Source: Spirochaetia bacterium
Lineage (GTDB): Bacteria; Spirochaetota; Spirochaetia; DSM-27196; Salinispiraceae
Assembly: GCA_038204425.1 (NCBI GenBank)
Contig: JBBRCZ010000003.1
Location: forward strand, 128,001-192,000
Length of the DNA: 64,000 bases
Direction: 5' to 3'
The first letter of the stretch is position 1; every line of letters starts with the position of its first letter. Both the position numbers and the translations under genes were made by a program. A model generated the notes under the pieces. The model was given only the letters and a program-made list of their open reading frames with translations, did no database searches and had not been told where the DNA came from. Of this stretch, positions 7,845-57,664 are shown piece after piece.

Positions 7845-8234
7845 ATGGCCATGCATAGGCAGACACGGGTTGAGCATTTATTGTCTCAACTGCTTGGCAG
7901 CATGATTGTCAGCGGAGAAATCAAAGATCCTCGTGTGAGTACTTTGGTTTCGATTGGTGATATTAGTGTGGCAAAAGATTTGTCGCACGCCAAAATAGGT
8001 GTCTCGGGTTACATGGATGACAAAGAACTTGAATTGGCTGTGGAAGGACTCAATTCCGCAGCTGGTTTTATTCAATCGAGACTTGCTAAGAGCCTGCAGA
8101 CACGGTTGACACCACGATTGCATTTTGAAGTCAACCGCAATATCAAGGCCGCCTTTGAAATGTCTAAAACACTGGATAGTCTAAATATTAAACATGAAAC
8201 AAGCGATGACAACGGCGGGGATAGCGATACTTGA
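7845..8234 (+). CDS. rbfA: Ribosome-binding factor A
   Basis: IKDPRV, DLSHAK, AAGFIQ, RLTPRLHF; follows infB. Confidence 0.93.
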   Translation: MAMHRQTRVEHLLSQLLGSMIVSGEIKDPRVSTLVSIGDISVAKDLSHAKIGVSGYMDDKELELAVEGLNSAAGFIQSRLAKSLQTRLTPRLHFEVNRNIKAAFEMSKTLDSLNIKHETSDDNGGDSDT

Positions 8235-9096
8235 TAAACCGGAAGGACTTACCTCCTTTCGGGCCTTAGGTGCGCTCAAAAGAAACTTATCAACCAAAAA
8301 AATCGGTCATTGTGGCACTTTGGATTTGTTTGCCAGCGGGCTGCTGCTTGCTTTTGTCGAAGAAGCTACTCGCTTAGTGCCCTGGTTTGTTGGTAAAGAC
8401 AAGAGCTACACTGCTCAGATATGGTTTGGTTCGCAGACAGACACCTTGGACCCTGGCGGCAAGCAAATTGCCAGCGCTGACGTGCCGTCACTCGAGCAAA
8501 TTCTGTCCGTTTTACCAAGTTTTGTAGGAAATATTGCCCAAGTGCCGCCAGCCTATTCGGCAATACACATTGATGGAAAGCGCGCCTACCAGCGCGTGCT
8601 TGCAGGGGAAGAACCGGCACTCAGACCACGTAACATAACTATTCACTCGATAGACTTTCTCAAATGGCAGTCGCCAGTAATGACCATTCAAGTGGCTTGT
8701 TCGTCCGGAACATACATACGTTCATTGGCACGTGACATCGCTTTAGCCTGCTCCTCGGTGGCACACCTGTCAGGTTTGAGGCGAACCCAACTTGGTTCAC
8801 TAAAGGAGTCCGACTCGCGGGTTTGCAGTCCAGATCAATGCGGTATCAATGAAGTTATATCGGGCAGGCGCGTACTTGATTTGATAGGCGAGGTGCAGTG
8901 TCTCGAGCTGCGAGAACAATTTGAAGCCGACTTTAAGCAGGGCAGAGCCATAAAAGAGACATGGTTTAGCTCGCTTGACCTTCCTATTGAATCCCAGACG
9001 GCTATGGTTGCCTGCCAAGATCGCATTGTAGGCGTCGTAACGCTGGTTAGACAGCAAGCTATACGCTACCAACAGGTTTTCCCTCGCGGAATATGA
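8194..9096 (+). CDS. truB: tRNA pseudouridine(55) synthase
   Basis: DKPEGLTS, GHCGTLD, PPAYSAIHIDGKRAY, SSGTYIRSLARD. Confidence 0.95.
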   Translation: MKQAMTTAGIAILDKPEGLTSFRALGALKRNLSTKKIGHCGTLDLFASGLLLAFVEEATRLVPWFVGKDKSYTAQIWFGSQTDTLDPGGKQIASADVPSLEQILSVLPSFVGNIAQVPPAYSAIHIDGKRAYQRVLAGEEPALRPRNITIHSIDFLKWQSPVMTIQVACSSGTYIRSLARDIALACSSVAHLSGLRRTQLGSLKESDSRVCSPDQCGINEVISGRRVLDLIGEVQCLELREQFEADFKQGRAIKETWFSSLDLPIESQTAMVACQDRIVGVVTLVRQQAIRYQQVFPRGI

Positions 9097-31498: not shown

Positions 31499-34400
31499 TT
31501 ATTCAGATAAGAAGTAATCCTTGTCGTAACCAAGGTCTCTTGAGTGTGGGTAGCGGCGCAGCAAAACACTAAAGTACTTACGAGCTTCATCGGGACGTTT
31601 GGTTTTCTTATAGTAATCACCCATTATTCGATAAGCATCGTAGGTTTGGCGGTTATCGTATTTTTCTAAATAGGCTTTGGTCGCATATGGTTTTACTAAC
31701 TCCATCGCCTCAATCCAGCTACTTTGTTCAGGCATATTGTTGAGCAGCCTTGCTCGTTCTATATCAATGTACATCTTGCCGGGGCCTGTTAATGACATGG
31801 CCAAAAACGTCCCCGTCGCGATTACAAAAACCACAACTGCCACAATAAAGACGGGTCTAAAGTGTTTAAACTCCAAAGCCGCTATGCGCTTCCTAAAGAT
31901 GATTACCGGTATCATTAGCAGTGTCAGAATCAGGCCAATATATTCATCAGCACTGCGTTGGTAAACCAATTCAACATCTGCCTGTTCTGGATAAATCAAC
32001 ATAAAACCTGGCGCCACTGGATAGAGCTTCTCGCCGTTTTTGGACTTCCAACTTGGCGCAAAAGAAATCTTGATAATATGAGGTTTGCCAACTTGCGTGG
32101 TTTTAAACGTCACCAAGTGATCGCCTACAGATTCGTTGCTAACTTGTGCCAGAGTATGTGTTTGAGCATAGGACCGCCATTCGTCGCTGCGGAAGAAGCG
32201 TTGATGAATATCATCGTAACTTCCAAAGTTGCTAGCTACTTTCTGTTTTAACAAGTCATCGCTAAAGGACTCGGGCACAAAAGGACGTGCCACTAGTTCA
32301 TAGTCTCTATAGAAGCGGTAGAAATCAGTCTTAAATCCACCCGCAGAGTCTTTGACTATCGACAAAGCATCGCTGGGCAAAATGTCTATATAGGAGCTCT
32401 TAAAGCCCTTAAATTCAAAGACATGAAACTTGCCCCATGCTCCAAACAGCTGAAAGTCGGGGTGATTGCGAAAGTGTTCAAGAATACCATCAGAGTAGGC
32501 AATTATAAAACGGGCATTGGCTTGCGTAAAGCGAAGTGGCCAGGTTGGCGGATCAACTTTTGAATAGAGTCGATGGGCCTCTGGGTCAACTGGACTTGGT
32601 GAGTAGGTGCTCTGTAGATAAGTTGTCTGACGTGACATAAAACTAGACCCATAATGTATGCCTTCCATAGAAGGTCGACCCGTAAAGTGGAAGAGGTTTT
32701 CAAAACCGCGCTCGGAACCAAAGTCGGCGTTATCGGCTTGTGGTTGTTTTTCCCACAAAATTCTTCCGTCATTAATGTTTCCTCGCACCGCATCTGACAT
32801 TGCCGTGAGGTTGTTCCATTCTCGTTTGTCTTCGTAACCTGTATAGTTCCAGCGGAACCAGCCAGGGGCATTTACGCCAATTAAAGGTATAAGCACAAGT
32901 GCTATTATCAAAAATACTAGTACTGCTAGCGGACGTACCACGCCCTGCTTAAATTTTTTCATGGCCAAAAAGTTTGACTCCATAAAAATCATGTAAGCAA
33001 AGATTGAGACAATCAGTGCAGCAGGTACAAAGCGAATGCCCGGAATCTCCAGTACCGTCGCTGCGAGAAACATAAAGGCGCAGGCCGCCATCGCATAAAG
33101 AATGTACGCCCCCTGATAAGCAAAGCGATTGGGACTTCCATCTGCAAGTAAAGCGTTTTTGCTGCGCCTGTTCTGAAATATTATGGCAATTGCTGCTATG
33201 CTTGCCCCAACCCAAACGGGCATCAACATGGTGCCAGCGGCCTCGGCAAAGCTATTAAAGTGCCAAATCATAGAAATACTTTGGGCCCACTTCCGCGTCA
33301 GTACCATTGGCACAATCCAAAAACCCATCATAAGTACGCCAACCAGGTAAGTAAAGGGAATCTGTAGAACCAGTGCTTGGGGACGGGCTTCTAGCAGTGC
33401 CAACGCCGGCAGCCTGGCCTTTTTTTCCTTAGCAAAAAAATGTCGTGATCTAAACGCAAAAAAGAATGGCAAAAAGAAGGCCACCATCAAGACAAATATA
33501 TGAGATAGGCCAATTATGCCCAGCAGCACGCCAGACTTTAGCGACCAGGTTCGGCTGTGGTGATCCTTCCAAACTGAAGCAATAAAAAGTGGCAAGAAAG
33601 CAATGGCCCAAGAGTAACAGAACTCACCAGCGAAGGTCGACAAGAGATTGCCGCCAAACATGGTGTAGCTCTCGTTAAATAGGAACAGTAAGCTTAAACT
33701 GCTGCCAGCAAGTGCCGTCCAGTGATTCTTGCTCATCGACTTAACAGCAAAGAACGTTGTTAGGGGCAGGGCAAAGATCCCAAGAAAGGTGGCAATCTTG
33801 AGGGCCACAGTAAGCGGCATTACGTAGCCAAGTAAGGCGGGAAGCAAAAAAGGTAGAACGAAGTAATGCTGACCTTCGAGGTAGCCAAAAAAGTTTGAGT
33901 GGCTGTAGCCAAAAAGTCTTAGGTTGGGCAAAAACTCCTCTTTTAGTGCTTGGAGTGGTTGATACCAAGAGGCCGTGTCTCCACCCGTAACTATAGTATC
34001 TGTAAAGAGAAGTGGGAGTTCAAAGCGAGACAACATAAAGAAATAGATCACAAAAAGGCCAACTAAGGAACTCAAGACAACAAAAGATTTTTTCTTTACC
34101 AAGCGATTAAGACTGAGTAACTTGTTGTGCCTTAGAAAAAGTTTGGTTTCTTTGCTTCGATTGACAACAATCAGGATTGCAAGTGGGTAGGCAATTGCCA
34201 GAGCCAATAAAAACGTTATGCCAAGGATTTTGATTAAGGCGTGAATAACTGCTATTGTTGCGACGGTAATAGCTTGTGAACTGTCTACCGCGCTAGCGCT
34301 CTTGTCAAAAAGCCCAACAATTGCCGAACTTGCCTCGCGGGTAAACTGGGCAAAGCCGCCACTTAGCATTTGCGAGATGGTATCGTTAAAGCCATTTAGG

Positions 34401-34750
34401 TTGCTCACATACCAGGTAACAACGCCAAGCACCGCGACATGCATCATTAAGACAGCGCCCCATTGGGTAGTTGCAACGCCGATTCGCTTAGATCGCAGCA
34501 AAAATAAGCCAGAAACCAGCAAATAAATTGGTACGAGCACCAATACCAAGGAAGAAACAGCAGTTTGCGTAGAAAAGATAAAGCTGTTGCTAGGAAGTGT
34601 CAAAAAACTTGGAATCAGTAGGCCAAGTCCGTATATCCCCGGTATTAGGCCTATCAAACCCACCAAAAGGTTGAAAAGGCCCAAACGGCTTAAGTGAGAA
34701 GGGACTTCAAAAGATCTATTGCTTAGCGTTGCTTCACTCGGGTTTGACAT
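31499..34750 (-). CDS. Large polytopic membrane protein, PTPS-related/YfhO-like (GT-C glycosyltransferase-like) with C-terminal TPR
   Basis: TGGDTASW after the early TMs, GGNLLSTFAGEF, WFRWNYTGYE, KISFAPSWK; many TMs; AAGGAG SD. Confidence 0.65.
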   Translation of the reverse strand: MSNPSEATLSNRSFEVPSHLSRLGLFNLLVGLIGLIPGIYGLGLLIPSFLTLPSNSFIFSTQTAVSSLVLVLVPIYLLVSGLFLLRSKRIGVATTQWGAVLMMHVAVLGVVTWYVSNLNGFNDTISQMLSGGFAQFTREASSAIVGLFDKSASAVDSSQAITVATIAVIHALIKILGITFLLALAIAYPLAILIVVNRSKETKLFLRHNKLLSLNRLVKKKSFVVLSSLVGLFVIYFFMLSRFELPLLFTDTIVTGGDTASWYQPLQALKEEFLPNLRLFGYSHSNFFGYLEGQHYFVLPFLLPALLGYVMPLTVALKIATFLGIFALPLTTFFAVKSMSKNHWTALAGSSLSLLFLFNESYTMFGGNLLSTFAGEFCYSWAIAFLPLFIASVWKDHHSRTWSLKSGVLLGIIGLSHIFVLMVAFFLPFFFAFRSRHFFAKEKKARLPALALLEARPQALVLQIPFTYLVGVLMMGFWIVPMVLTRKWAQSISMIWHFNSFAEAAGTMLMPVWVGASIAAIAIIFQNRRSKNALLADGSPNRFAYQGAYILYAMAACAFMFLAATVLEIPGIRFVPAALIVSIFAYMIFMESNFLAMKKFKQGVVRPLAVLVFLIIALVLIPLIGVNAPGWFRWNYTGYEDKREWNNLTAMSDAVRGNINDGRILWEKQPQADNADFGSERGFENLFHFTGRPSMEGIHYGSSFMSRQTTYLQSTYSPSPVDPEAHRLYSKVDPPTWPLRFTQANARFIIAYSDGILEHFRNHPDFQLFGAWGKFHVFEFKGFKSSYIDILPSDALSIVKDSAGGFKTDFYRFYRDYELVARPFVPESFSDDLLKQKVASNFGSYDDIHQRFFRSDEWRSYAQTHTLAQVSNESVGDHLVTFKTTQVGKPHIIKISFAPSWKSKNGEKLYPVAPGFMLIYPEQADVELVYQRSADEYIGLILTLLMIPVIIFRKRIAALEFKHFRPVFIVAVVVFVIATGTFLAMSLTGPGKMYIDIERARLLNNMPEQSSWIEAMELVKPYATKAYLEKYDNRQTYDAYRIMGDYYKKTKRPDEARKYFSVLLRRYPHSRDLGYDKDYFLSE

Positions 34751-40039: not shown

Positions 40040-42850
40040 GTGTTTCTCAAAAATCTAGAAATACTTGGATTCAAATCTTTTGCTGATAGGACACGTATCG
40101 AATTTGCCGATGGCATTTCTGCCTTGCTTGGACCCAACGGTTGTGGCAAGTCAAATGTTGTCGACGCTATAAAATGGGTTTTGGGCGAACAAGCCTCCAA
40201 GTCCCTGCGTGCCGAAGCGATGGAAGATGTGATCTTTAACGGCACCGAGACCCGCAAGGCACTCAACGTGGCCGAAGTAACCTTAACCCTAGGTAATGAA
40301 GATGGCATCTTGCCGCTGGACATGAGCGAAATAACCATACGACGAAGACTTTTTCGCAATGGTGATAGCGAATATTACATCAACAACGCTCCAGTTAAGC
40401 TGCGAGAACTGCGTGAGTTATTCTATGACACCGGAGTTGGTAAGACCGCCTATTCGATTATGGAACAGGGCAAGATCGATCAGATTCTATCCAACAGGCC
40501 CGAAGAACGCCGTAATCTTTTTGAAGAAGCGGCGGGTATTACGCGCTTTAAGGTGCGCGGCCTTGAGGCAGAGCGCAAACTTGAGAAAACCGACGAAAAT
40601 ATTCGCCAGATCGAAAGTATCCTCAGTGAAGTTAAACGTAGCTATGACAGTCTTAAAAAACAGGCAGACAAGACTCACAGCTATCGTGGTCTCAAGGACC
40701 AAGCTTTTGAACTTGACCTCAACATTCAACTGCTCAAATTAAAAGAAACCAAAGAGTCAAGCCAAAAGCAAAGCAAAGAACTAGAAAACCATCAGCGCGA
40801 ACGAGATGAGCTCAAAAAAAACATCGACAACACTAATGAGACTTTAGAATCTAGCCTCGACGAAATGAATGCAATGGAAGCTCAGTTAATTGGCAATCAG
40901 AAAAAGCTCTATGGCATTGAACTAGAAAAGAACAATCACGACAACCAAATAAAGATGCTGGCCGAGCGAATTCGTGAAATTGAAGAAAAAATTGTCCAAG
41001 ATGTGCAAAGGAGTCGTGCAGCCCAAGAAAAAGCCTTGGCGGTGCAAAATCAGTTAGCACAGCATGGAAAAAGTATCAGCGAACTTGGTGAGCAACTAAA
41101 GAAGACTGATGAACATATCCAACAGTTTGCTTCTAATGTCGAAGCTGCACAGTCAAGGATCAAAACCAATAGTGACGAAAGCACGGCCTTGGAGGAGTCA
41201 ATTAAAGCCAACGACCTGCGGATGAGTTCAATTCAGGCCGACTTAACGGCCTTGACCGATCGCATCGTTAGTCAGTTGGATAGGGGCCTTGGTGATAGCG
41301 ACTATGACGCCGGTTCTCGGCAAGAAATAGAAAACAAAGTTTTTGCTCTGCTTGACTCACTCACCATCAATCTGACTGGAAGGCGCGATATTCTTGCTGA
41401 CCTTCAGAAAATTGACTCGGAAGATTCGTTGCGGCAAGGAATTGCCAAGGTCTGTGAGGGTTTTCCCGAAACGCTAAAACTGTTAGATGAACTTAGATTG
41501 GGCATGCAAGATTTTAGTACCTCAATGCCACTTTTTCTTGATGAATTTCTTGCACCGGAGGGCACCATCACCAAAAAGCGCGATTTGGACTCGCTTTTGG
41601 AAAAAACCCATCAAGAAATTATAGCTGCACGAAAAAAAATATCCGATCTTGGGCGTGAAAACACCGGTTTGAGCCTAAAAATTGGTGAGTATCGCGATAC
41701 GCTTGAACAATTGAGACTTGGAAAAGAACGAAGTATCGGTCAAAAAAAATCACTTGAAGAGCAGGTTAAGCGCGACCAAGCGAGCTTGGCTGAGCTACGG
41801 AGCCAGATTGGTGAACTTGAGGCCCAAAGCGCTGAGGATCGCGGCAGGATTAATGGGATTAAGGAAAAAATAGAAGAAGTTAAGCAGCACTTGTCTGACT
41901 TAAGTGTCAAAGAAAAAGAACTGCAAAAGCAACTTGATGAGTTAGAAAAGGGCATTTCAACGCGCTCAAAGACTCTTCTAAATAAAGAAAAACAGCTCAA
42001 ATCTCAGATGCTGTCGTTGGCTGCATTTCAGGATAAGGTAGAGAAGTCCCAGATCACGGGAGCCGAACTTGCTTCAGAAATTAGGAATATTTGTGCCAAT
42101 TTTCGTGAAAAATACTCACGTGACCTGCTTGAGTTTGAATCGCGACAACTTGAGCAGCTAGCTGAGGCTCGCGAGCTTCGTGAGCAGGCTTCAGATATTA
42201 AAGAACAACTTAGGGCACTCGGCAGCGTTAACTTGATGGCCGTCGAAGAGTTTGCCGAAGTCAAAGAACGTTACGACTTCCTAAGTGGTCAGCTTGAGGA
42301 CTTAAGAAAAGCTAAGGACGATCTGGTCAAGGTTACCGATGAGATCCGCCAAGAGAGCGCTCATTTGTTCTCAGAAACCTACGAAAAAATTAGACGGCAT
42401 TTTCATGTCTTGTTTAGGCGACTTTTTGGCGGTGGGCGAGCCGAGATCAAACTGACCAGTCCAGAAGCAGTTTTACAGTCGGGCATAGAAATCTACGCCC
42501 AGCCACCAGGAAAGAAGCTGGAAAACATAGCCCTTCTGTCGGGTGGTGAACGTTCGTTGACGGCCGTTGCGCTCTTGTTTGCAACCTACATCGTTAAACC
42601 TTCGCCCTTTTGTTTGCTCGACGAGATAGATGCGGCGTTGGACGAAAGTAACGTCAATCGCTTTGTTTCGATGCTGATGGAATTTGGTGAAACAAGCCAG
42701 TTTATCATTATCACGCATAACAAAAAGACCGTTACTGGCGCCAAGACACTACTCGGGGTTACTATGGAAGAGTCGGGGGTGTCAAAAATTATCGCAATTC
42801 GATTGTCACATGACGCATCGAGTAGAGAGATAGTTGAAAACAATGGCTAA
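40040..42850 (+). CDS. smc: Chromosome segregation protein Smc (short spirochete/P115 type)
   Basis: GFKSFA, GPNGCGKSN, LSGGE, LLDEIDAALD, IITH; long coiled coils; promoter-like TTGACC-N17-TAGCTT at 39981. Confidence 0.93.
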   Translation: MFLKNLEILGFKSFADRTRIEFADGISALLGPNGCGKSNVVDAIKWVLGEQASKSLRAEAMEDVIFNGTETRKALNVAEVTLTLGNEDGILPLDMSEITIRRRLFRNGDSEYYINNAPVKLRELRELFYDTGVGKTAYSIMEQGKIDQILSNRPEERRNLFEEAAGITRFKVRGLEAERKLEKTDENIRQIESILSEVKRSYDSLKKQADKTHSYRGLKDQAFELDLNIQLLKLKETKESSQKQSKELENHQRERDELKKNIDNTNETLESSLDEMNAMEAQLIGNQKKLYGIELEKNNHDNQIKMLAERIREIEEKIVQDVQRSRAAQEKALAVQNQLAQHGKSISELGEQLKKTDEHIQQFASNVEAAQSRIKTNSDESTALEESIKANDLRMSSIQADLTALTDRIVSQLDRGLGDSDYDAGSRQEIENKVFALLDSLTINLTGRRDILADLQKIDSEDSLRQGIAKVCEGFPETLKLLDELRLGMQDFSTSMPLFLDEFLAPEGTITKKRDLDSLLEKTHQEIIAARKKISDLGRENTGLSLKIGEYRDTLEQLRLGKERSIGQKKSLEEQVKRDQASLAELRSQIGELEAQSAEDRGRINGIKEKIEEVKQHLSDLSVKEKELQKQLDELEKGISTRSKTLLNKEKQLKSQMLSLAAFQDKVEKSQITGAELASEIRNICANFREKYSRDLLEFESRQLEQLAEARELREQASDIKEQLRALGSVNLMAVEEFAEVKERYDFLSGQLEDLRKAKDDLVKVTDEIRQESAHLFSETYEKIRRHFHVLFRRLFGGGRAEIKLTSPEAVLQSGIEIYAQPPGKKLENIALLSGGERSLTAVALLFATYIVKPSPFCLLDEIDAALDESNVNRFVSMLMEFGETSQFIIITHNKKTVTGAKTLLGVTMEESGVSKIIAIRLSHDASSREIVENNG

Positions 42851-43355
42851 AATAAATTTGAGCTTCCTGACGGTGATTGTTGACGCATTGAGGTCGTTTG
42901 CCGAAAATCTAAGCGATAAGCTGTCGTTAGCAAAAGAATCGCTAGGTCCAAAACTCAAATTAGCACTTTTGGCGGCTTTAATTTTGACTATGGTGCTACT
43001 AATTTTGCTTGTACTTTTGTCAATGCCAAGTGCTCCTGTCGCTGCAAAAAGCTCGACTACACTTGAAATTGCTCAGCAGGCAAGCATCTACGGCACAGAT
43101 TTTTCTTTGGGACCTAGCACCCAAACCACCGTCGCTGCACAAGGAATCGACCCTTTTTTAAAGAAGCCTATTTTGCCGCCTGAGCCTCGGCTTTACCTTG
43201 GGGGCGAGATAGAACTGAGCCGACCGCCACAATCATATTGGTCAATTGAAGACCTTGAGCCTTTTTGGCCAAGCTTAAAACAAGACTTGCAACGGGTTTT
43301 AAGAGAACAAAATCAAAAGGATTTTTTGCGTTTGCTTAAGCACGGTAGTAATTAG
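42843..43355 (+). CDS. Hypothetical single-TM protein
   Basis: One TM helix then an S/T- and P-rich region; overlaps the smc stop. Confidence 0.65.
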   Translation: MAKINLSFLTVIVDALRSFAENLSDKLSLAKESLGPKLKLALLAALILTMVLLILLVLLSMPSAPVAAKSSTTLEIAQQASIYGTDFSLGPSTQTTVAAQGIDPFLKKPILPPEPRLYLGGEIELSRPPQSYWSIEDLEPFWPSLKQDLQRVLREQNQKDFLRLLKHGSN

Positions 43356-43425: not shown

Positions 43426-44976
43426 ATGCAACTGAAGACTCGTTTGATAGCAATCAACAAAAAGCTGCTCGTTTTGGGGATACTATTGTCTTATTTGGGC
43501 AGTATATCGGCCCAAGAATTACAAGGGCCAGAATCGGATGCTTTGCTTGCTCCAAAGATTGAGTACTCTGATAAGTTGCTACCTGCAATTGAGCTGATAA
43601 TTCCGAGGCTTAAACTCAAATCCGCAAGCCGAAGTCCACTAGTAAACCTAAGTCCCAATCAGGCGAATGACGCCCGGACATTGGCAACAATCAATAAAGA
43701 TGCGCAAAAATTGATTCACGCTTCGGCGATTGCAGTTGCGTCGACCAATCTGGGATTGGAAGTCGTCGCCCTGTCGGCTCAGAACGCTAACCAACTTGTC
43801 AGCAAGCAGCTAGAACTTGCGCCAATCAAGCAGCTTATTGTTCCCGTTGATAGCGAAGTTGTGGTTCAAGCTCTTGTGCGACCAAAAACTACTACAACTA
43901 CCATTGCTAGGCCTGCCTTGACGGTTGCGCGCTTATCGAGTACTAGCACTACTGTCAGGCCGGTAGCGCGAGCTGCTTCTACGAGCACAACTACGGTCCT
44001 TCGGAGCGCTTACGTTAAGGATCCGGTTCCAAGTCCAGCTGCCATTAGGGCCAAAGCGCTGGAGGCCATCAATTATGCCCAGGCCCAGAGTTCTACGCTG
44101 GTTGATGCGCCTTTGGTCCAACAAATCCAGTCTCCGACCACGTCATTACCAAGTCTTAGTCAAACAGTGTTTGGGCAGCTCGGGATCCCCGTAGAAATTG
44201 GTCTCAAGGGACGCGGATGGCTCTATCTTGGCTCGGTTGGACAGCCAAACGCCGTGGCGTTCTTGGAAAAAACAGCAGGTTTTGACGCTGAAAAGTTTAG
44301 ATTCAGAAATGAAAAAACCGGTATGGTAAGCCTGCAGTTCCAGCGACAGGACCTGCAAAGCGGTTTGACCGAGAAGGCAGTTGTGGTACTCACTATCAGT
44401 CCTCGTAGCAACTCAGCTGTTCTCCCAATCAATAGTAGCATTCAAAATCCAACAACTGGAATGCAACAGCAACAAAACTCTCCTGCCACAAGCGCTACCG
44501 GAAGTTTTGAACCAGAGTATCCCTTGGTTTCAGCAGCTGCTGGCAATTCTCAAAATCGAGCTGGTTCAAACTGGAATCAAACAGGGCCGCGCAGTGAGCT
44601 AGGCGCCAACAGCCCAGAAACAAGTGCGGCCCAAGCAAATTTGAGTGTAGAAAGTACCAGTGCCTTAGACGCTATGAAGGTTACTGGTGATGCTGAAAGT
44701 ATGTTTTCTATGGCAGCGTCGTGGGAAAAAGGTAAAAATGCAGTCCCCGCACGAGATCTGTACAAAAGAATCCTCAAAGAACAAACAGCCTATGAAAAAA
44801 CGGACCAAGTAATGTTTGCTTTAGCAAAACTACTAGAAAATGATGCGGTCGTGCGGGATTTACAAGCTTCGCGTGACCTTTACGTGCAGCTACAAAATTT
44901 GTACCCTTACAGTAGCTTAGTAGAGCCAGCGCGGGAGCGGATGCGCTACTTGCAGCGTACCTTCTTTAGGCAGTAA
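43426..44976 (+). CDS. Exported protein with Thr/Ser-rich linkers and C-terminal TPR (BamD/CpoB-like)
   Basis: Signal peptide; GWLYLG beta domain; C-terminal FALAKLLE..SRDLY..L...YPYS. Confidence 0.7.
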   Translation: MQLKTRLIAINKKLLVLGILLSYLGSISAQELQGPESDALLAPKIEYSDKLLPAIELIIPRLKLKSASRSPLVNLSPNQANDARTLATINKDAQKLIHASAIAVASTNLGLEVVALSAQNANQLVSKQLELAPIKQLIVPVDSEVVVQALVRPKTTTTTIARPALTVARLSSTSTTVRPVARAASTSTTTVLRSAYVKDPVPSPAAIRAKALEAINYAQAQSSTLVDAPLVQQIQSPTTSLPSLSQTVFGQLGIPVEIGLKGRGWLYLGSVGQPNAVAFLEKTAGFDAEKFRFRNEKTGMVSLQFQRQDLQSGLTEKAVVVLTISPRSNSAVLPINSSIQNPTTGMQQQQNSPATSATGSFEPEYPLVSAAAGNSQNRAGSNWNQTGPRSELGANSPETSAAQANLSVESTSALDAMKVTGDAESMFSMAASWEKGKNAVPARDLYKRILKEQTAYEKTDQVMFALAKLLENDAVVRDLQASRDLYVQLQNLYPYSSLVEPARERMRYLQRTFFRQ

Positions 44977-45045
44977 GACAAAGCAATTTCGCAAATATAT
45001 GGGTGCTATAGCTCCAAAGACTTCCAACTCAGCCAACAAGTCAAA

Positions 45046-45074
45046 TTGACATCATCCATAGCTGGCGATAGAAT
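45046..45074 (+). promoter_or_regulatory. sigma70-type promoter of the E1-lipoyl-FabH fusion gene/ffh
   Basis: TTGACA-N17-TAGAAT; GAGGAG SD before GTG 45123. Confidence 0.75.
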
Positions 45075-45122
45075 GCCAGCAGATAAAATTGGATTTGTTG
45101 TTTTGGCCTCGAGGAGTTTATA

Positions 45123-48100
45123 GTGAGTAAGAATGCCCTCCAGCTTGAGTTGTTTCTATCAGTGTTTCGCAACATGGTGGCGTCACGAGAGATAGACATA
45201 CTGGAACAGGACTATACCCAGCGCGGTGAAGCGTTTTTTCATGTTTCTGGCACTGGTCATGAGAACATTGCCTTCCTCAATACACATTTGATTCCAGCTG
45301 ACTATCTCCATTGTCATTATCGTGACAAATCCTTGATGTTGGCACGGGGCTTGAGTATAGAACAGTTTTTCTTAAGTCTTTTTTGTAAAGACAATAGTCA
45401 CAGTCGTGGTAGGCAAATGTCTGCTCATTTGTCGGATCCGGACCTTCACATAATGAGTTTAGTCGGACCGGTTGGAAACAATGCCCTTCAAGCGGTGGGA
45501 GCAGCTTCGGCTATAAAAAACCAAAGTCAGAACCCAATTGTACTATGTGGTCTAGGCGATGGAACATCGCAACAAGGTGAAGTGCTAGAGGCGATTGCTC
45601 ATGCAGTTCGCCAGACACTGCCTGTCTTGTTTGTGATCCAAGACAATACCTGGGCAATTTCAACCAAAACCGAAGGGCAGACTTTTTATAATACACCTGA
45701 TGGCGATGCTGAGCAGTATTACGGCATTCCTATTGTGCGTGTCGATGGCAAAGATGCGCATAGTTGTCACGACGTATTTGGCGAGGTAGTAGCGTCTATG
45801 CGCAAAACTCGTAAGCCGGCCATAATTATTTTTAAAGTTGCTCGTATTAACAGTCATACCAACGCTGACGACCACCGTATGTATCGCAGTGCCGAAGAAA
45901 TAGAGGCCACGCGAGCCAGTGGTGACCCCCTAGTCCCCCTAGAGGCATGGTTCCAGACCCAAGGTATTGCCAGCCAAGACTTAAGTGCTATCCGTCAAGA
46001 GATTAAAGAAACGGTCCGCAAGGCAGCCGAGGCAGCTCAATACAGCCCAGAACCCAAGGCCATCTACGACGCCAAAGCGGTATTACCAGCAAGTTTATTT
46101 GACTTAGCCAGAGAAAATAGAGGTGATGAGGCCCAGGGACAGGTGGTTATGCTTGAGGCCCTTAGAGTGACTCTCAAGAACCACTTGGAGTCTGATGCAG
46201 ACGTCTGTTTGTTTGGAGAAGATATTGAGGACCCCAAGGGTGATGTTTTTGGCGTCACCCGAGGCCTTAGTCAGGCTTTCCCTGATAGAGTTGTCAATTC
46301 GCCCTTGGCAGAGGCTACCATTGTGGGTGTAGCAGTAGGGCAGGCCCTTGCTGGCAAAAAACCTGTGGCTTTTTTGCAATTTGCCGATTTTTTCCCTATC
46401 GCCTTCAATCAGATATTTGCTGAACTGGGCTCGATGCACTGGAGAACTGACGGTGCTTGGAAATGCCCGGTAATATTAATGGTCACCTGCGGTGGCTACA
46501 AGCCGGGCTTGGGTCCATTTCATGCTTCGAGTATGGAGTCGATTGCCGTTCACACTCCAGGTGTGGACGTTTTTATGCCTTCTTCGGCGGCAGATGCGGC
46601 GGGTCTTTTAAATGCGGCCTTTGAGTCAAAACGACCCACGGTCTTCTTTTATCCCAAGAGTTGTCTCAATGATCGCAGTCAAGCGACATCCACCGATATA
46701 CACAAACGATTTGTTCCGATTGGAAAAGCACGCTTGGTGCGATCGGGTAGTGACTTTACCTTTGTTGGCTGGGGCAATACCGTGGCTTTGTGTCGTCAAG
46801 CCGCAGACGAACTAAGTAAAGTGGGGATTAACAGCGATGTAATTGACCTGAGATCGCTCTTTCCATGGGATCAAGAAACTGTTTTAAGTTCCGTAAAACG
46901 AAGTCGTCGTATGATTATTGCTCAAGAAGATAGTCATAGCGCCAGTTTGGCAAGTGAAATAAGTGCCACTATCTCTGAACTGATAGTTGGCGAAATTGTA
47001 GTCAAAAGAGTCTCGCGACCTGACACGTACGTGCCTTGTAATTTTGGCAACCAATTGGAAGTTTTGCCATCCTACCAAAAAATTCTAGAAACCGCCGTTG
47101 AGATTTTAGGTGCAAGTATTAGTTGGCAAAAAGACCAGGTTGCCGAAGACGGATACGCCTTTATTGAGGCAGCCGGATCTAGCCCTTCAGATGAGTCAGT
47201 CACCGTTATCCAATGGCGAGTAAAACCTGGTGATGTGCTCAAACCAGGCATGCCGCTAGCTGAGATGGAAGCAGATAAGGCTGCTTTTGAGCTTTCTTGC
47301 CCAATCGGCGGCACGCTGACTCAAGTCTTGGTTCCAGTGGGCATGATGGTAAAGGTTGGTACACCTTTACTGGTGGTTGCTATAGAGGGGCGTAAACCAG
47401 TAATTAAACCACTTACAAGAGAAAACCCAGGTATACCAACTATCGTTTTACCTGAAATCCAAAAATCAAAAAGCATAGTCAGTGACCACCACGAGCTACA
47501 TGAGTCTGGCCGCTACAATCGGCCCAAGTTTTCACGGGCTATGCCGGTTGCTGGTATTGCTGGGATAGTGGCAGTTCCTGGCTCTATTGCAGTATCCAAC
47601 ACACAGATAGCCTCCAAAAGTAGTGACTGGGATGCTCAGGATATTTTCAAGCGGATCGGTATCGAGAGTCGTTACTGGGTGGCTGAGAGTGAAACCACAA
47701 CCTCATTAGCTATTAAGGCAGCACAAAAATTGCTCAAGGCGCATAAACTAAAGGCGTCTGATTTGAGCGCGGTCATCTGTACAACCGGGACTCCCGATAT
47801 AATGACGCCTAGCCTTGCTTGTTTGGTGCTTGATGCTTTGTCCAAAGATCTCAAAGAGTCGCCCTTGATTCCGGCTTGGGATATTAATGCTGCATGCTCA
47901 GGCTATTTATATGGCCTTCAGGCTGCCTGGGATCACTTGTTGCACGAGCCTAGTGGCAAAGTTTTGTTGGTAAGCAGTGAGGTGCTTTCTAGAAAAACTG
48001 ACCCCGTTGACTCAAGTACCGCACCGATCTTTGGCGACGCGGCAACGGCAACGCTGATACTTGGCTGGGACAACTTTAAACAGTTTAAGTGGTTGATAGA

Positions 48101-48545
48101 ACGACCCGTTTTGGCTGCCAAGGCCGAAAGTGGCAAAGCCTTGAGTGTGCCGCTCAAGACTGGCGAATATGTCCACATGGATGGACCCAAGGTTTTTCAA
48201 GAAGCGGTGCGCCATATGGTGCTACTTCTAGAAAAAGCCTGCGCACAAAGTGGTATCAAGGTTAGTGACCTAGATTTAGTTGTACCACATCAGGCCAACC
48301 AAAGAATCATAAATGCTGTCAGACAAAAAGCAAAACTCGACGAAGATCAGGTTTATAGTAATATCCGACACTACGGAAATACTTCATCATCATCGATTCC
48401 GATTGCCTTGGCCAAAATTTTGGACGAAGGCCACCAAGCCAAGTCGATAGGTCTATGCGCCTTTGGTGGAGGCTTTACGTTTGCAGGAGGCATTCTTCGT
48501 GTGCCCGATCAACAAAACGCAAACTTTGCCAGTCAGGAAGAATGA
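45123..48545 (+). CDS. Fusion: 2-oxoacid dehydrogenase E1alpha + E1beta + lipoyl domain + 3-oxoacyl-ACP synthase III (FabH)
   Basis: ThDP motif GDG145-147...DN; E1beta FGEDI..GDVFGVT, PLAE, QFADF; lipoyl EADK719A; FabH AAC925SG, PH1056QAN, GN1086TSS. Confidence 0.93.
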   Translation: MSKNALQLELFLSVFRNMVASREIDILEQDYTQRGEAFFHVSGTGHENIAFLNTHLIPADYLHCHYRDKSLMLARGLSIEQFFLSLFCKDNSHSRGRQMSAHLSDPDLHIMSLVGPVGNNALQAVGAASAIKNQSQNPIVLCGLGDGTSQQGEVLEAIAHAVRQTLPVLFVIQDNTWAISTKTEGQTFYNTPDGDAEQYYGIPIVRVDGKDAHSCHDVFGEVVASMRKTRKPAIIIFKVARINSHTNADDHRMYRSAEEIEATRASGDPLVPLEAWFQTQGIASQDLSAIRQEIKETVRKAAEAAQYSPEPKAIYDAKAVLPASLFDLARENRGDEAQGQVVMLEALRVTLKNHLESDADVCLFGEDIEDPKGDVFGVTRGLSQAFPDRVVNSPLAEATIVGVAVGQALAGKKPVAFLQFADFFPIAFNQIFAELGSMHWRTDGAWKCPVILMVTCGGYKPGLGPFHASSMESIAVHTPGVDVFMPSSAADAAGLLNAAFESKRPTVFFYPKSCLNDRSQATSTDIHKRFVPIGKARLVRSGSDFTFVGWGNTVALCRQAADELSKVGINSDVIDLRSLFPWDQETVLSSVKRSRRMIIAQEDSHSASLASEISATISELIVGEIVVKRVSRPDTYVPCNFGNQLEVLPSYQKILETAVEILGASISWQKDQVAEDGYAFIEAAGSSPSDESVTVIQWRVKPGDVLKPGMPLAEMEADKAAFELSCPIGGTLTQVLVPVGMMVKVGTPLLVVAIEGRKPVIKPLTRENPGIPTIVLPEIQKSKSIVSDHHELHESGRYNRPKFSRAMPVAGIAGIVAVPGSIAVSNTQIASKSSDWDAQDIFKRIGIESRYWVAESETTTSLAIKAAQKLLKAHKLKASDLSAVICTTGTPDIMTPSLACLVLDALSKDLKESPLIPAWDINAACSGYLYGLQAAWDHLLHEPSGKVLLVSSEVLSRKTDPVDSSTAPIFGDAATATLILGWDNFKQFKWLIERPVLAAKAESGKALSVPLKTGEYVHMDGPKVFQEAVRHMVLLLEKACAQSGIKVSDLDLVVPHQANQRIINAVRQKAKLDEDQVYSNIRHYGNTSSSSIPIALAKILDEGHQAKSIGLCAFGGGFTFAGGILRVPDQQNANFASQEE

Positions 48546-48574
48546 ATTAAAATGAACAAGGTTTGGTAGATTAG

Positions 48575-49912
48575 ATGCTAGAAAAAGTAAGTTTGGCCTT
48601 TAGTGATATTATTAGAACAGTTGCTGGCAAGGCGAGTGTAACAGAAAAAAATGTAGAAGAGGCTGTTGAACAGATAAAGCTTGCACTGCTTGATGCTGAC
48701 GTTAGTGTCCGAGTGGTCAGGCGATTTGTCAATCAGACCTTGCAAGAGGCAAATGGCGAAAAGGTACTGCGCTCGGTTAATCCCGGGCAACAGTTTATAA
48801 AAATTGTTCATGACAAAATGGTTGCCCTCTTGGGGGATACCAAGCAAGACCTTCAGCTAAGAGGACCAGACACTGCCAGTGTTATTCTATTGTATGGCTT
48901 GCAAGGCTCAGGAAAAACTACAAGTGCCGGTAAGTTGGGCTTACGATTAAAGAAGCAAGGCCGCAAAGTACTCTTGGTTGCGGCTGACTTGGTGCGGCCC
49001 GCTGCGATCGAACAGTTGGCAATCTTAGGGCAGCAGCTTGAGATCGACGTTTACCGCGAAGATGGAGCTACAGATCCGGTCAAAGTTGCCAAAAACGGCG
49101 TTAACTTTGGCAAAAAAAACCTCTTTGACACGATAATTATTGACACGTCGGGTCGCATGCAAGTTGATGAACCTTTGATGAAAGAATTGCAGCGACTCAG
49201 AGACAGCGTCTCACCGCTTGAATCCTTGCTAGTTGTAGATGCAATGACCGGTCAGCACGCGGTAGAGATCGCGACAGCCTTTGACCAGAACCTCAGTCTG
49301 ACTGGTCTAATTTTGACCAAGTTTGACTCTGATACCCGTGGTGGGGCCGCTCTCTCATTGAGATCGGTAACGGGCAAACCAATCAAGTTCATTGGTACTG
49401 GTGAAAAATCGACTGACTTGGAAGTTTTTCATCCAGAAAGGATTGCTGGCCGTATTCTTGGCATGGGTGACGTTGTCAGTTTGGTTGAAAAAGCTCAAGA
49501 GGTCTTTGATCAAGACCAAGCGATTAAATTGCAACAAAAGATGGCGACTGGCAACTTTACCTTAGAAGACTATCTCGACCAGTTTAGACAAGTTCGCAAA
49601 ATGGGTAGTCTGGAAAAGTTAGCAGAGATGATTCCGGGCATGAAAAACGCTGTTGAAAGTGAGCAGATCAATGAAAAGGGTATCAAGACTGAAGAAGCCA
49701 TTATTCTGTCTATGACCAAGAACGAACGAGGTAACCATCTGATTATTGGCCCTTCAAGACGCAAACGAATAGCGCATGGATCGGGGACTTCGGTGCATGC
49801 AGTCAATCAGTTGCTCAAAAAGTTCGAAAAAACGCGCGATTCTATGCGAAAAATGACCAAAAACAAGAAGTATCAGGCTCAGGTATTGCAACAGATGGGC
49901 ATGCCTGGTTAA
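48575..49912 (+). CDS. ffh: Signal recognition particle protein Ffh
   Basis: GLQGSGKTT, DTSGR, TKFDSDTRGG, RILGMGD, Met-rich M domain. Confidence 0.97.
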   Translation: MLEKVSLAFSDIIRTVAGKASVTEKNVEEAVEQIKLALLDADVSVRVVRRFVNQTLQEANGEKVLRSVNPGQQFIKIVHDKMVALLGDTKQDLQLRGPDTASVILLYGLQGSGKTTSAGKLGLRLKKQGRKVLLVAADLVRPAAIEQLAILGQQLEIDVYREDGATDPVKVAKNGVNFGKKNLFDTIIIDTSGRMQVDEPLMKELQRLRDSVSPLESLLVVDAMTGQHAVEIATAFDQNLSLTGLILTKFDSDTRGGAALSLRSVTGKPIKFIGTGEKSTDLEVFHPERIAGRILGMGDVVSLVEKAQEVFDQDQAIKLQQKMATGNFTLEDYLDQFRQVRKMGSLEKLAEMIPGMKNAVESEQINEKGIKTEEAIILSMTKNERGNHLIIGPSRRKRIAHGSGTSVHAVNQLLKKFEKTRDSMRKMTKNKKYQAQVLQQMGMPG

Positions 49913-53081: not shown

Positions 53082-53357
53082 ATGCAAAACGCCGATGGTC
53101 ATAAGAGGGCTTTGGCTCTTTGGTATACAAAAGACGTTCCAGCACCTTTGCTTGTAGCAAAAGGGCAGGGGCAGCTCGCGGAGAGAATTGTAGAAGTGGC
53201 CAAACGAAACGGGATTCCGGTTCAACAAGACCTGGCTTTAAGTTCAGAATTGATGGACTTGCGCATAGGTCAAGAGATTCCTGAACGCTGTTTTGAAGTT
53301 ATTGCGGCTCTTTATCGTTTTGTATACGAACAAAGAGGCAAGTTTACGGGGAACTAG
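53082..53357 (+). CDS. Stand-alone FlhB C-terminal-like (EscU/YscU/HrcU, FlhX) protein
   Basis: ALALWY...APLLVAKGQGQLAERI..VAK.NGIPV, IGQEIPE. Confidence 0.88.
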   Translation: MQNADGHKRALALWYTKDVPAPLLVAKGQGQLAERIVEVAKRNGIPVQQDLALSSELMDLRIGQEIPERCFEVIAALYRFVYEQRGKFTGN

Positions 53358-55847: not shown

Positions 55848-56327
55848 ATGCTTACCGTTCTGTTTCCAGGTTCATTTGATCCTCCAACCAATGGGCACTT
55901 AAATTTGATCCATAGATCAGCGACTATCTATGACCATGTACATGTAGTCGTGGCCGTAAACAACCAAAAGTCGTATACTTTTAGTGCCGAAGAGCGACTA
56001 GAAATGATGCAGAAAATTTGCGCGCGGTTTAGCAATGTAAGTGTTCACCTCTGGGACAAACTGGTGGTTGAATTTGCGCGTCAAGTTAAGGCTCGCGTCA
56101 TGGTAAGAGGAGTAAGGGCCTTGGCAGACTTCAATTACGAGTTTGAGTTATCTATCCTAAACAAAGGACTTGATCCAGATATCGAAACAGTCTTTATGCC
56201 AACTGATCCCCAATATTTTGTGCTACGTTCGTCCGCAATCAAAGAACTTGCTCGCCTTGGTGGTGATATTTCCAAGATGGTTCCTCAAGAAATAGTGAAA
56301 GACGTTATCGCCAGAATGCGAAAATAA
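55848..56327 (+). CDS. coaD: Pantetheine-phosphate adenylyltransferase
   Basis: PGSFDPPTNGH, VRGVR..DFNYE, SSAIKE. Confidence 0.97.
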   Translation: MLTVLFPGSFDPPTNGHLNLIHRSATIYDHVHVVVAVNNQKSYTFSAEERLEMMQKICARFSNVSVHLWDKLVVEFARQVKARVMVRGVRALADFNYEFELSILNKGLDPDIETVFMPTDPQYFVLRSSAIKELARLGGDISKMVPQEIVKDVIARMRK

Positions 56328-56671: not shown

Positions 56672-56911
56672 ATGGCTGATGAATTGTTCGAGAAGTTAAA
56701 GAAGTTGATCGCTGACAAATTGGAAGTCGAGGAGTCTAAAATTACTCCCGAAGCATCTTTTCGCCAAGATCTTGGTGCAGACAGCCTTGACACGTATGAA
56801 TTGGTGTACGCGATAGAAGAAGAGCTTGGAATTCAAATTCCAGACGAAAAAGCAAACGAGTTCGAAACCGTCAAGGACGCTCTGGAATTTATTCGTTCTG
56901 CTCAGAAGTAA
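56672..56911 (+). CDS. acpP: Acyl carrier protein
   Basis: DLGADSLD phosphopantetheine site; GGAGG SD. Confidence 0.97.
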   Translation: MADELFEKLKKLIADKLEVEESKITPEASFRQDLGADSLDTYELVYAIEEELGIQIPDEKANEFETVKDALEFIRSAQK

Positions 56912-56938: not shown

Positions 56939-57664
56939 ATGAGCGTAAAGCCAGCCTTTGACGATGAGCGAAAACGTTTATTACTATCGTTTCAAAAAAA
57001 ATGTAAACTTAGGTTCAAGAGCTTAGAGCTTTTGAACCTTTCTTTTTGTCATCGATCTTGGTCAAATGAAAAATCTGACAATCCCCATAACAATGAGCGG
57101 CTAGAATTTTTGGGTGACTCGGTTCTGGGCATGGTTGTCGCTGGCTATCTTTTTGAAAACTATCCGCACTATTCCGAGGGAGAACTCGCCAAAATTAAGG
57201 CTTTTGTAGTGTCAGAAGAGAGTCTGGCATCAATCGCGCTTAGCTTGCACCTGCCTGACTTTTTGCTTTTGGGCAAGGGTGAAGAGATGTCCGGCGGCAG
57301 AAATCGCAAGGCAATTCTCGCCGACGCTTTGGAAGCCGTCATCGGGGCCATCTACTCAGATTCTGGCATAAAGAATGTTCAAGACTTTATATTGGCCGTA
57401 CTGATTCCGGAAATTGAGAATGTAGTTAACGACAAACACAAAAAAGACTATAAAACACTATTGCAAGAAGCCGTTCAAAAAAACTACAAAATGTTTCCAC
57501 GCTATGTTTTGACCAGCAAGTCTGGTCCAGATCACGATAAGATCTTCTGGATGGAAGTCCATATTGCTCAAGAAAGTTTTGGTCCGGCAAGTGGTAGCAA
57601 TAAAAAAATGGCCGAACAAGCTTGTGCTCAAATCGCGTGGCAGGCACTTTTCTCTTTAACCTAG
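56939..57664 (+). CDS. rnc: Ribonuclease III
   Basis: NERLEFLGDSVL, ADALEAVIGA, dsRBD DYKTLLQE..GPDH. Confidence 0.97.
   Translation: MSVKPAFDDERKRLLLSFQKKCKLRFKSLELLNLSFCHRSWSNEKSDNPHNNERLEFLGDSVLGMVVAGYLFENYPHYSEGELAKIKAFVVSEESLASIALSLHLPDFLLLGKGEEMSGGRNRKAILADALEAVIGAIYSDSGIKNVQDFILAVLIPEIENVVNDKHKKDYKTLLQEAVQKNYKMFPRYVLTSKSGPDHDKIFWMEVHIAQESFGPASGSNKKMAEQACAQIAWQALFSLT

Follow-up and report, generated by a model that had tools for sequence, protein, structure and literature searches.

A conserved bacterial fusion of a 2-oxoacid dehydrogenase E1, a lipoyl domain and a FabH-type ketosynthase as a candidate enzyme for starting lipid chains from 2-oxoacids

Can a bacterial lipid chain be started straight from a 2-oxoacid, with the lipoyl arm of a dehydrogenase handing its acyl group to a ketosynthase? 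The question is raised by a single gene at positions 45123–48545 (forward strand) of the window, the term used here for the whole 64,000-nucleotide stretch of Spirochaetia bacterium DNA that was analysed (assembly GCA_038204425.1, contig JBBRCZ010000003.1, positions 128,001 to 192,000). The encoded protein of 1140 residues joins the alpha and beta parts of a thiamine diphosphate (ThDP)-dependent E1 (the decarboxylating component of 2-oxoacid dehydrogenase complexes), a lipoyl domain, a linker and a FabH-type 3-oxoacyl-acyl carrier protein (ACP) synthase III (KAS III) in one chain. The fusion is a real, conserved feature, for which the best reading is a 2-oxoacid dehydrogenase variant with KAS III at the position of the catalytic domain of E2, the component that normally transfers the acyl group to coenzyme A (CoA). 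It probably starts lipid chains directly from 2-oxoacids, along a route that has yet to be described.

The open reading frame (ORF) begins with a GTG codon, with AGGAG located 8 nt before it, and runs on without an internal stop. Its E1alpha module (residues 17–313; 45171–46061) matches Pfam E1_dh with an E-value of 4e-48 and 164.3 bits against a cut-off of 22. The module carries the ThDP/Mg motif G145-D146-G147...N175 and an H245-T-N-A-D-D loop, and residues 9–311 align to the alpha subunit of a Thermus thermophilus 2-oxoacid dehydrogenase (1um9_A), in which the corresponding loop reads H-S-S-A-D-D. The E1beta module (46149–47060) consists of Transket_pyr (residues 343–515; 88.6 bits, cut-off 27) and Transketolase_C (residues 534–646; 88.4 bits, cut-off 25.9). 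Its top PDB match is 1um9_B, with 198 bits over residues 341–659, and the next matches are pyruvate dehydrogenase (PDH) beta subunits with 177–178 bits. A Biotin_lipoyl domain follows (residues 692–751; 47196–47375; E-value of 1e-12), with the putative lipoyl-lysine K719 (AAG codon at 47277–47279) inside an E-A-D-K-A sequence. D-K-A is the mark of a lipoyl domain and M-K-M that of a biotinyl domain, and in NCBIfam this stretch of the fusion matches the lipoyl parts of acetoin dehydrogenase and PDH E2 proteins. A linker (residues 758–805; 47394–47537) leads to the KAS III domain (residues 809–1127; 47547–48503), which scores 247.5 bits with NCBIfam PRK09352. Within it, Pfam ACP_syn_III covers residues 920–979 (56.2 bits) and ACP_syn_III_C residues 1040–1126 (91.7 bits), both over their cut-offs; indeed, all six Pfam domains of the protein exceed the curated thresholds. 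The catalytic triad is encoded at 47895–47897 (C925), 48288–48290 (H1056) and 48378–48380 (N1086), and aligns to C112, H244 and N274 of Escherichia coli FabH in 30 out of 30 fusions. Pfam yielded no match to the E2 catalytic domain (2-oxoacid_dh, PF00198) or to E3_binding (PF02817) in the fusion protein at E ≤ 0.01.

In an alignment (A1) of 25 full-length members with 53–68% identity, the E1 residues G145-D146-G147, N175 and H245-T246-N247-A248-D249-D250, the lipoyl sequence E716-A717-D718-K719-A720, and C925, H1056 and N1086 of the KAS III domain are invariant (25/25). A first-pass annotation of the window, made from its letters and ORFs, had described an uninterrupted E1alpha-E1beta-lipoyl-FabH frame of this length, had named these same residues, and had noted that the protein is devoid of an E2 catalytic domain; each of these statements was borne out. 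The invariance of the catalytic motifs in every part of the protein indicates that the three catalytic modules are under joint purifying selection, and by these motifs all modules look catalytically competent. An AlphaFold2 model based on the A1 alignment (mean predicted local distance difference test score, pLDDT, of 80.6; predicted TM-score of 0.62) is confident for all domains, with pLDDT falling below 50 at residues 758–766 and 779–805. These low-confidence linkers around the lipoyl domain fit a swinging arm on predicted flexible tethers. Between the two stretches lies a conserved segment, K762-P-x-T-R-E-x-P-G770-x-P772 (47406–47447, corresponding to residues 762–775), for which the model places a short strand at 771–775. 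G770 and P772 are invariant in 25/25 homologues, and P772 nearly so in a more diverse set. The alpha/beta type of E1 forms an alpha2-beta2 tetramer, FabH a homodimer, and both arrangements would be accommodated at once if the fusion formed a homodimer.

The fusion is present well beyond this assembly. Contigs from three public DNA runs (two studies) cover window positions 44500–49200 with zero differences, and those at 44500–47628, 46127–49048 and 45545–48084 span the junctions of E1alpha with E1beta, of E1beta with the lipoyl domain, and of the latter with KAS III. Of these three runs, one carries no flag as a potential source of the assembly. No RNA run was listed for this stretch. A search covering 5.8 billion proteins returned at least 120 full-length homologues of 962–1189 residues (all but two of at least 1102 residues), with the same domain set and 52–68% identity. 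In a locus scan that took one genome per species, 37 loci were found to encode the lipoyl-KAS III part, 30 of them as a complete single frame of 1108–1233 residues; the remaining seven are broken at a contig start (five) or a contig end (one), or encode FabH only (one, L031). The complete loci span at least seven phyla, with carriers in the Spirochaetota, Pseudomonadota (alpha, beta and gamma), Verrucomicrobiota/Kiritimatiellales, Planctomycetota, Sumerlaeota and Actinomycetota. By record title they belong to Spirochaetales, Methylococcaceae, Cysteiniphilum litorale, Francisellaceae, Neisseriaceae, Rhizobium, Devosia, Verrucomicrobiota, Kiritimatiellales, Pontiella, Opitutaceae, Planctomycetaceae, Phycisphaeraceae, Sumerlaeota and Miltoncostaeaceae. 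Judged by these homologues, the fusion is old and widespread; it is also an accessory gene of patchy distribution. Short matches with a 'split' appearance were not counted as natural splits, as many lie on short contigs or start inside E1beta. A fusion relative in the same class (G174:C14:28271–29581, minus strand; 46% identity) has a 1116-residue frame with one in-frame TGA.

A second, two-gene family bears on what a KAS III domain might be doing behind a lipoyl domain. In an uncultured Spirochaetales bacterium (locus L086), a gene for a 659-residue fused E1alpha-beta is followed after 12 nt by one for a 511-residue lipoyl-KAS III protein, with Biotin_lipoyl at residues 10–81, E3_binding at 129–164 (28.7 bits against a cut-off of 23.7), and ACP_syn_III plus ACP_syn_III_C at 288–511. 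A database search gave at least 120 relatives of the 511-residue protein (345–546 residues), many of them on long contigs, with Spirochaeta lutea, Salinispira pacifica, Ereboglobus luteus, Rariglobus hedericola, Pelagicoccus albus and Pelagicoccus mobilis among the names listed. When the first 95 of 120 listed members were examined with Pfam (E ≤ 0.001), all 95 had ACP_syn_III, 91 had Biotin_lipoyl and 59 had E3_binding. The typical member has about 490–546 residues. Of 80 genomes of the order to which L086 belongs, 5 have the full-length form. At all four sister loci examined, the gene immediately upstream, in the same orientation, encodes a fused E1alpha-beta, although these loci are close kin (approximately 70–80% identity) and so amount to roughly one observation. 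The defining order of an E2 is lipoyl domain, peripheral-subunit-binding domain and then catalytic domain. By its predicted domains, the sister family is this E2 order with KAS III replacing the acyltransferase domain, and it thus lends independent, comparative support to the placing of FabH in the E2 catalytic position that the first-pass annotation had proposed for the fusion.

The relationship between the two families was analysed with FastTree (LG+gamma) on 338 alignment columns of 114 KAS III sequences: 30 fusions (that of the window among them), 39 members of the sister family (every third one of 115), 43 stand-alone FabHs taken from the genome scan, E. coli FabH and the host FabH. In this unrooted tree with approximate supports, all 30 fusion domains, together with the KAS III of locus L031, form one clade (support 1.0), and all 39 sister-family domains form another (support 0.996). 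The two clades join with a support of 0.88, apart from the 44 other stand-alone FabHs. The simplest reading of the tree would be a single origin of lipoyl-linked KAS III, followed by fusion to E1 with loss of the E3-binding domain. The L031 protein (7986–9026, plus strand; Isosphaeraceae) is a stand-alone KAS III of 346 residues nested in the fusion clade, and it has likewise lost CoA-adenine residues, with Ala at position 32 and Phe at position 151; no E1 or lipoyl gene was found within the flanks examined, and it may be a secondarily separated form of the fusion KAS III. Two other candidates for further lipoyl-linked forms, a 584-residue frame in G013 and a 699-residue frame in G005, were rejected as ordinary FabHs within over-long frames.

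A change of acyl donor might be expected to leave a trace at the CoA site. In E. coli FabH, the passages on the CoA complex in PMC4606726 describe the adenine as hydrogen bonded to Thr28 and stacked between Trp32 and Arg151, and the pantetheine as held by Arg36 and two Asn residues. All groups were aligned to the E. coli FabH encoded by NC_000913.3, with 43 stand-alone FabHs serving as controls. The three adenine contacts are lost from the fusions. Thr28 is kept in 37/43 controls, 0/30 fusions and 1/115 sister-family members; Trp32 in 39/43, 0/30 and 0/115; and Arg151 in 42/43, 0/30 and 56/115, respectively. Three of the control misses at Trp32 are alignment gaps from trimming, the sole control substituted at Trp32 or Arg151 is the L031 protein of the fusion clade, and Thr28 is Val or Lys in three controls. 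The stand-alone FabH of the host genome itself retains Thr28, Trp32 and Arg151. Arg36 is kept in 41/43 controls, 24/30 fusions and none of the 115 sister proteins. Asn247 is kept in 43/43, 30/30 and 115/115 sequences, Arg249 in 43/43, 29/30 and 114/115, and the Cys/His/Asn triad in 43/43, 30/30 and 115/115, while a G-N-T-S-S stretch is invariant along with the His/Asn pair in both fusions and sister proteins. Arg249 of FabH has a role in ACP docking. The nucleotide end of the CoA site thus appears to be gone in the fused KAS III, with the tunnel, the catalytic machinery and Arg249 remaining. Loss of the adenine contacts with retention of the triad and of the arm and ACP contacts is what would be expected if the donor arrives on a protein-bound arm and not as CoA.

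Taken together, we consider it fairly probable that the fusion acts as a self-contained, probably dimeric 2-oxoacid:malonyl-ACP priming enzyme that is independent of CoA. We also lean, a little less firmly, towards a general class of lipoyl-dependent ketosynthases, existing in full-fusion and two-gene forms across many phyla, for which the acyl-dihydrolipoyl arm would replace acyl-CoA or acyl-ACP as the KAS III donor. In the proposed cycle, the fused E1alpha-beta would use ThDP to decarboxylate the 2-oxoacid and reductively acylate the lipoyl group on K719. The flexibly tethered lipoyl domain would then take the S-acyl-dihydrolipoyl arm into the KAS III tunnel for transthioesterification to Cys925, a step that would stand in for the hand-over to CoA by the E2 catalytic domain in a normal complex. 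Malonyl-ACP would dock next, with His1056 and Asn1086 driving its decarboxylation, and Claisen condensation would yield a 3-oxoacyl-ACP that enters type II fatty-acid synthesis. Finally, the dihydrolipoyl arm would be re-oxidised in trans by one of the two dihydrolipoamide dehydrogenases (E3) encoded in the genome. Lipoylation of K719, the chemistry of these four steps, ACP as the acceptor and the identity of the 2-oxoacid are what we infer from sequence. Among these elements, a direct passage of the acyl group from lipoyl arm to the cysteine of KAS III can be proposed with good support, owing to the E2 layout of the sister family, the joint clade, and the loss of adenine contacts from a domain that keeps its triad.

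The partners for the proposed route exist in the host genome (2.84 Mb, 95.6% complete): lplA and lipA, two lpd genes, fabF, fabG and an ACP gene. The first-pass annotation had seen neither an E2 nor an E3 gene in the window and had supposed that an E3 would be encoded elsewhere. The 64-kb window indeed holds no E2 or E3 gene, and the genome was found to contain three E2 genes in addition to the two lpd genes. Among four ACP-like genes in the genome, the best (PP-binding, 54.8 bits) lies within the window at 56690–56893 (plus strand), approximately 8 kb downstream of the fusion and between a CoaD-like cytidylyltransferase gene (55848–56327) and rnc (56939–57664). A stand-alone FabH is encoded at C4:113663–114682, adjoining fabF and fabG, and passes both NCBIfam FabH cut-offs with 384.4 and 354.2 bits. 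PDH is encoded by an lplA-E1alpha-E1beta-E2-lpd operon, the E1 subunits of which pass the PDH cut-offs, and 2-oxoglutarate dehydrogenase (OGDH) by sucA and sucB, with sucCD and sdh. A third E1/E2/E3 set at C7:127263–132565 (L008 3264–8566, minus strand) comprises an 818-residue fused E1alpha-beta, lpd and an E2 with an E3-binding domain; the cluster also holds a short-chain dehydrogenase/reductase and a DeoR regulator. The 818-residue protein was rejected as a recent paralogue of the fusion E1, to which it is 24% identical. As the host possesses its own FabH as well as complete PDH, OGDH and third E1/E2/E3 sets, the fusion would be an additional route and not a replacement: presumably an extra, CoA-bypassing way of initiating chains beside the normal FabH.

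Which 2-oxoacid the fusion would use is less clearly indicated. Against PDB entries, E1alpha scores 122 bits with the T. thermophilus enzyme of branched-chain 2-oxoacid dehydrogenase (BCKDH) type, 110 with human BCKDH, 87 with a PDH E1alpha and 64 with Pseudomonas putida BCKDH, and in NCBIfam the fusion E1 falls far below the PDH equivalog cut-offs (180.9 against 411 for PDH_E1_alph_x, and 206.9 against 454 for PDH E1beta). A BCKDH-like E1, as the first-pass annotation had it, is therefore weakly indicated by these scores: the T. thermophilus and human comparisons agree with it, and the P. putida one does not. On balance we slightly favour a branched-chain acid or another acid larger than pyruvate as the substrate; pyruvate itself is a tentative candidate. 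The position of Phe87 is occupied by Thr or Ser in 28/30 fusions, and so small a residue suggests a roomier primer pocket. Iso-C14:0 and anteiso acids are listed for Coraliomargarita in the fatty-acid data of PMC10288369, a lead only on a possible link with either gene. A literature search for Cysteiniphilum fatty-acid profiles returned nothing naming that genus. The earlier interpretation as a whole is thus supported in part, with FabH at the E2 position, the CoA-adenine contacts lost and E3 present in the genome on the one hand, and weak indications for a BCKDH-like E1 on the other.

Several observations weigh against a CoA-independent priming enzyme. The fusion has no E3-binding domain, and re-oxidation of the arm must therefore work in trans. 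The fused KAS III scores under the NCBIfam FabH cut-offs, narrowly for PRK09352 (cut-off 249) and widely for TIGR00747 (214.5 against 292.1); it is thus a divergent member of the family, the acceptor of which could differ. At the Thr28 position a Trp is found in 24/25 close homologues, and in 12/30 fusions across phyla. This residue lies one helical turn from the lost Trp32 and might partly rebuild a nucleotide site. The pattern of residue loss also differs between the two families, the sister proteins keeping Arg151 in 56/115 and losing Arg36 in 115/115 cases. A stand-alone KAS III is encoded in 15/15 other fusion genomes examined. The fusion is not needed to explain initiation in the host, where PDH, OGDH and the third set could supply acyl-CoA. 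Within its own phylum, the gene was found in only 4 of 201 sampled genomes and 3 of 105 genera.

The fusion could, alternatively, serve for tethering alone, whereby E1 acylates lipoyl domains in the usual way, acyl-CoA is formed by a separate E2, and the FabH of the fusion captures this product nearby, with CoA still needed. Acyl-CoA is the normal substrate of FabH, the genome encodes three E2 proteins and two Lpd proteins, and the fusion itself is without an E3-binding domain, all in line with such an arrangement. However, the residues that contact the CoA adenine are replaced in 30/30 fusions and kept in 37–42 of the 43 controls, and in the sister family KAS III takes precisely the place of the E2 catalytic domain. 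Furthermore, 124 ORFs were scanned around the fusion at 15 loci without any recurrent E2, E3, fab or lipoate gene, and no E2 or E3 gene adjoins the fusion at these loci or in the window. An E1 docks on its E2 through the E3/E1-binding domain, which is neither present nor needed in the fusion. We regard tethering alone as unlikely on these grounds.

A second possibility, improbable to a similar degree, is that the fused domain is an acyltransferase and not a condensing enzyme. It would then take the acyl group off the lipoyl arm and load it on holo-ACP or on another thiol or hydroxyl, and an acyl-ACP formed in this way would be elongated by another synthase. Transacylation is a side activity of FabH, several members of the KAS III-like group are acyltransferases, and the low scores of the fused domain with the FabH profiles are compatible with such a change of function. 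In contrast, H1056 and N1086, the pair associated with malonyl decarboxylation, are invariant in 30/30 fusions and 115/115 sister proteins, as is the G-N-T-S-S stretch, whereas KAS III-like acyltransferases often have an altered His/Asn pair.

It is rather improbable that the fusion serves to start a specialised lipid, or a product of polyketide-like kind, in place of membrane fatty acids. Such a role would suit an accessory gene of patchy occurrence that always stands beside a normal FabH. A fatty-acid hydroxylase gene is located just upstream at one Rhizobium locus, and a PlsC-type acyltransferase gene adjoins the fusion at a Neisseria locus. Despite these single cases, no conserved biosynthetic partners, and no polyketide, secondary-lipid or other biosynthetic cluster, were found around the 15 fusion loci, and in the window the gene is situated between smc and the ffh-rpsP-rimM-trmD-rplS block. 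Last, an assembly chimera or frameshifted pseudogene, a concern that the first-pass annotation had itself raised, has next to no probability and is excluded by the contigs of three runs that bridge every junction without a difference, by 30 independent loci with the same single frame, and by the at least 120 full-length homologues.

The window as a whole is housekeeping DNA of a flagellated, spirochaete-like bacterium, with smc, the fusion gene, ffh, rpsP, rimM, trmD, rplS, a flagellin gene and a DUF5312 gene among its contents. Upstream of the fusion, a promoter-like site (TTGACA-17-TAGAAT; 45046–45074, plus strand) matches 11/12 consensus positions approximately 50 nt before the start codon, although this is a consensus match alone, with 4 such sites seen where 4.6 are expected from shuffled sequence. 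The ORF directly upstream of the fusion (43426–44976, plus strand; 516 residues) has no match in Pfam or NCBIfam, and two further window ORFs have no Pfam match (42834–43355, plus strand, 173 residues; 31499–34750, minus strand, 1083 residues). A 91-residue ORF at 53082–53357 (plus strand) matches only the C-terminal end of the FlhB/YscU export gate (profile positions 262–335 of 335), and is directly followed by an HD-domain gene. Gene neighbours of the fusion are not conserved across the 15 loci, and such patterns as do recur are local to a lineage. Aconitase and NeuB genes occur together at two spirochaete loci, and at four loci of the Verrucomicrobiota/Kiritimatiellales (L021, L024, L025 and L042) a GAF-PtsP gene of the enzyme I-Ntr type is placed divergently upstream, followed by an ammonium transporter gene in three of the four; a sodium:alanine symporter gene is found downstream in two.

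No description of an E1-lipoyl-KAS III or lipoyl-KAS III protein was found in the searchable literature, which mostly leaves out subscription journals, where a description may exist. Database names for these proteins are generic ('transketolase', 'thiamine pyrophosphate-dependent enzyme', 'beta-ketoacyl-ACP synthase 3' or '2-oxoisovalerate dehydrogenase E1 component'), and the ESM Atlas has automatic names alone. If the proposed route is correct, the lipoyl group would be a third kind of acyl donor in ketosynthase chemistry, and type II fatty-acid synthesis would have a new entry around the acyl-CoA pool. In 2-oxoacid dehydrogenase complexes, the E2 position would prove to be evolutionarily exchangeable. 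The route would also explain how some bacteria commit 2-oxoacids derived from amino acids or glycolysis directly to lipids, and a compact module made of one gene would become available to those who engineer branched or unusual fatty-acid starters.

Compared with known systems, the fused KAS III shares with canonical FabH (of E. coli, or the C4 copy of the host) the fold family, the residues equivalent to Cys112, His244 and Asn274, Asn247, Arg249 and the G-N-T-S sequence. It differs from these enzymes in the replacement of Thr28, Trp32 and Arg151, in the change of Phe87 to Thr or Ser, and in scoring under the FabH cut-offs. The sister family resembles the fusion in that a lipoyl domain precedes its KAS III, in that this KAS III shares a clade with that of the fusion and has lost Trp32 and Thr28 but not the triad, and in being accompanied by an E1alpha-beta. 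It is distinct in being encoded by two genes, in keeping the E3-binding domain (59/95), and in sequence, with approximately 31% identity for the lipoyl-KAS III part and 28% for E1. The H protein of the glycine cleavage system offers a precedent, as a lipoyl carrier on which dihydrolipoamide dehydrogenase acts with neither an E3-binding domain nor an E2 core, although it is a small, free-standing protein that carries an aminomethyl and not an acyl group. The closest functional parallel would be the Bkd or PDH complex that feeds FabH by way of acyl-CoA, as in the iso/anteiso priming of Bacillus and Staphylococcus, with which the fusion has the start and the end of the chemistry in common: a ThDP-dependent alpha/beta E1, acylation of a lipoyl-lysine, a Cys-His-Asn KAS III acting with malonyl-ACP, and re-oxidation by E3. 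In contrast to those complexes, the fusion lacks an E2 catalytic domain, a 24- or 60-mer core and an E3/E1-binding domain; its E1alpha and E1beta are fused, and a KAS III without the CoA-adenine contacts follows the lipoyl domain covalently, so that the acyl-CoA intermediate is presumably skipped.

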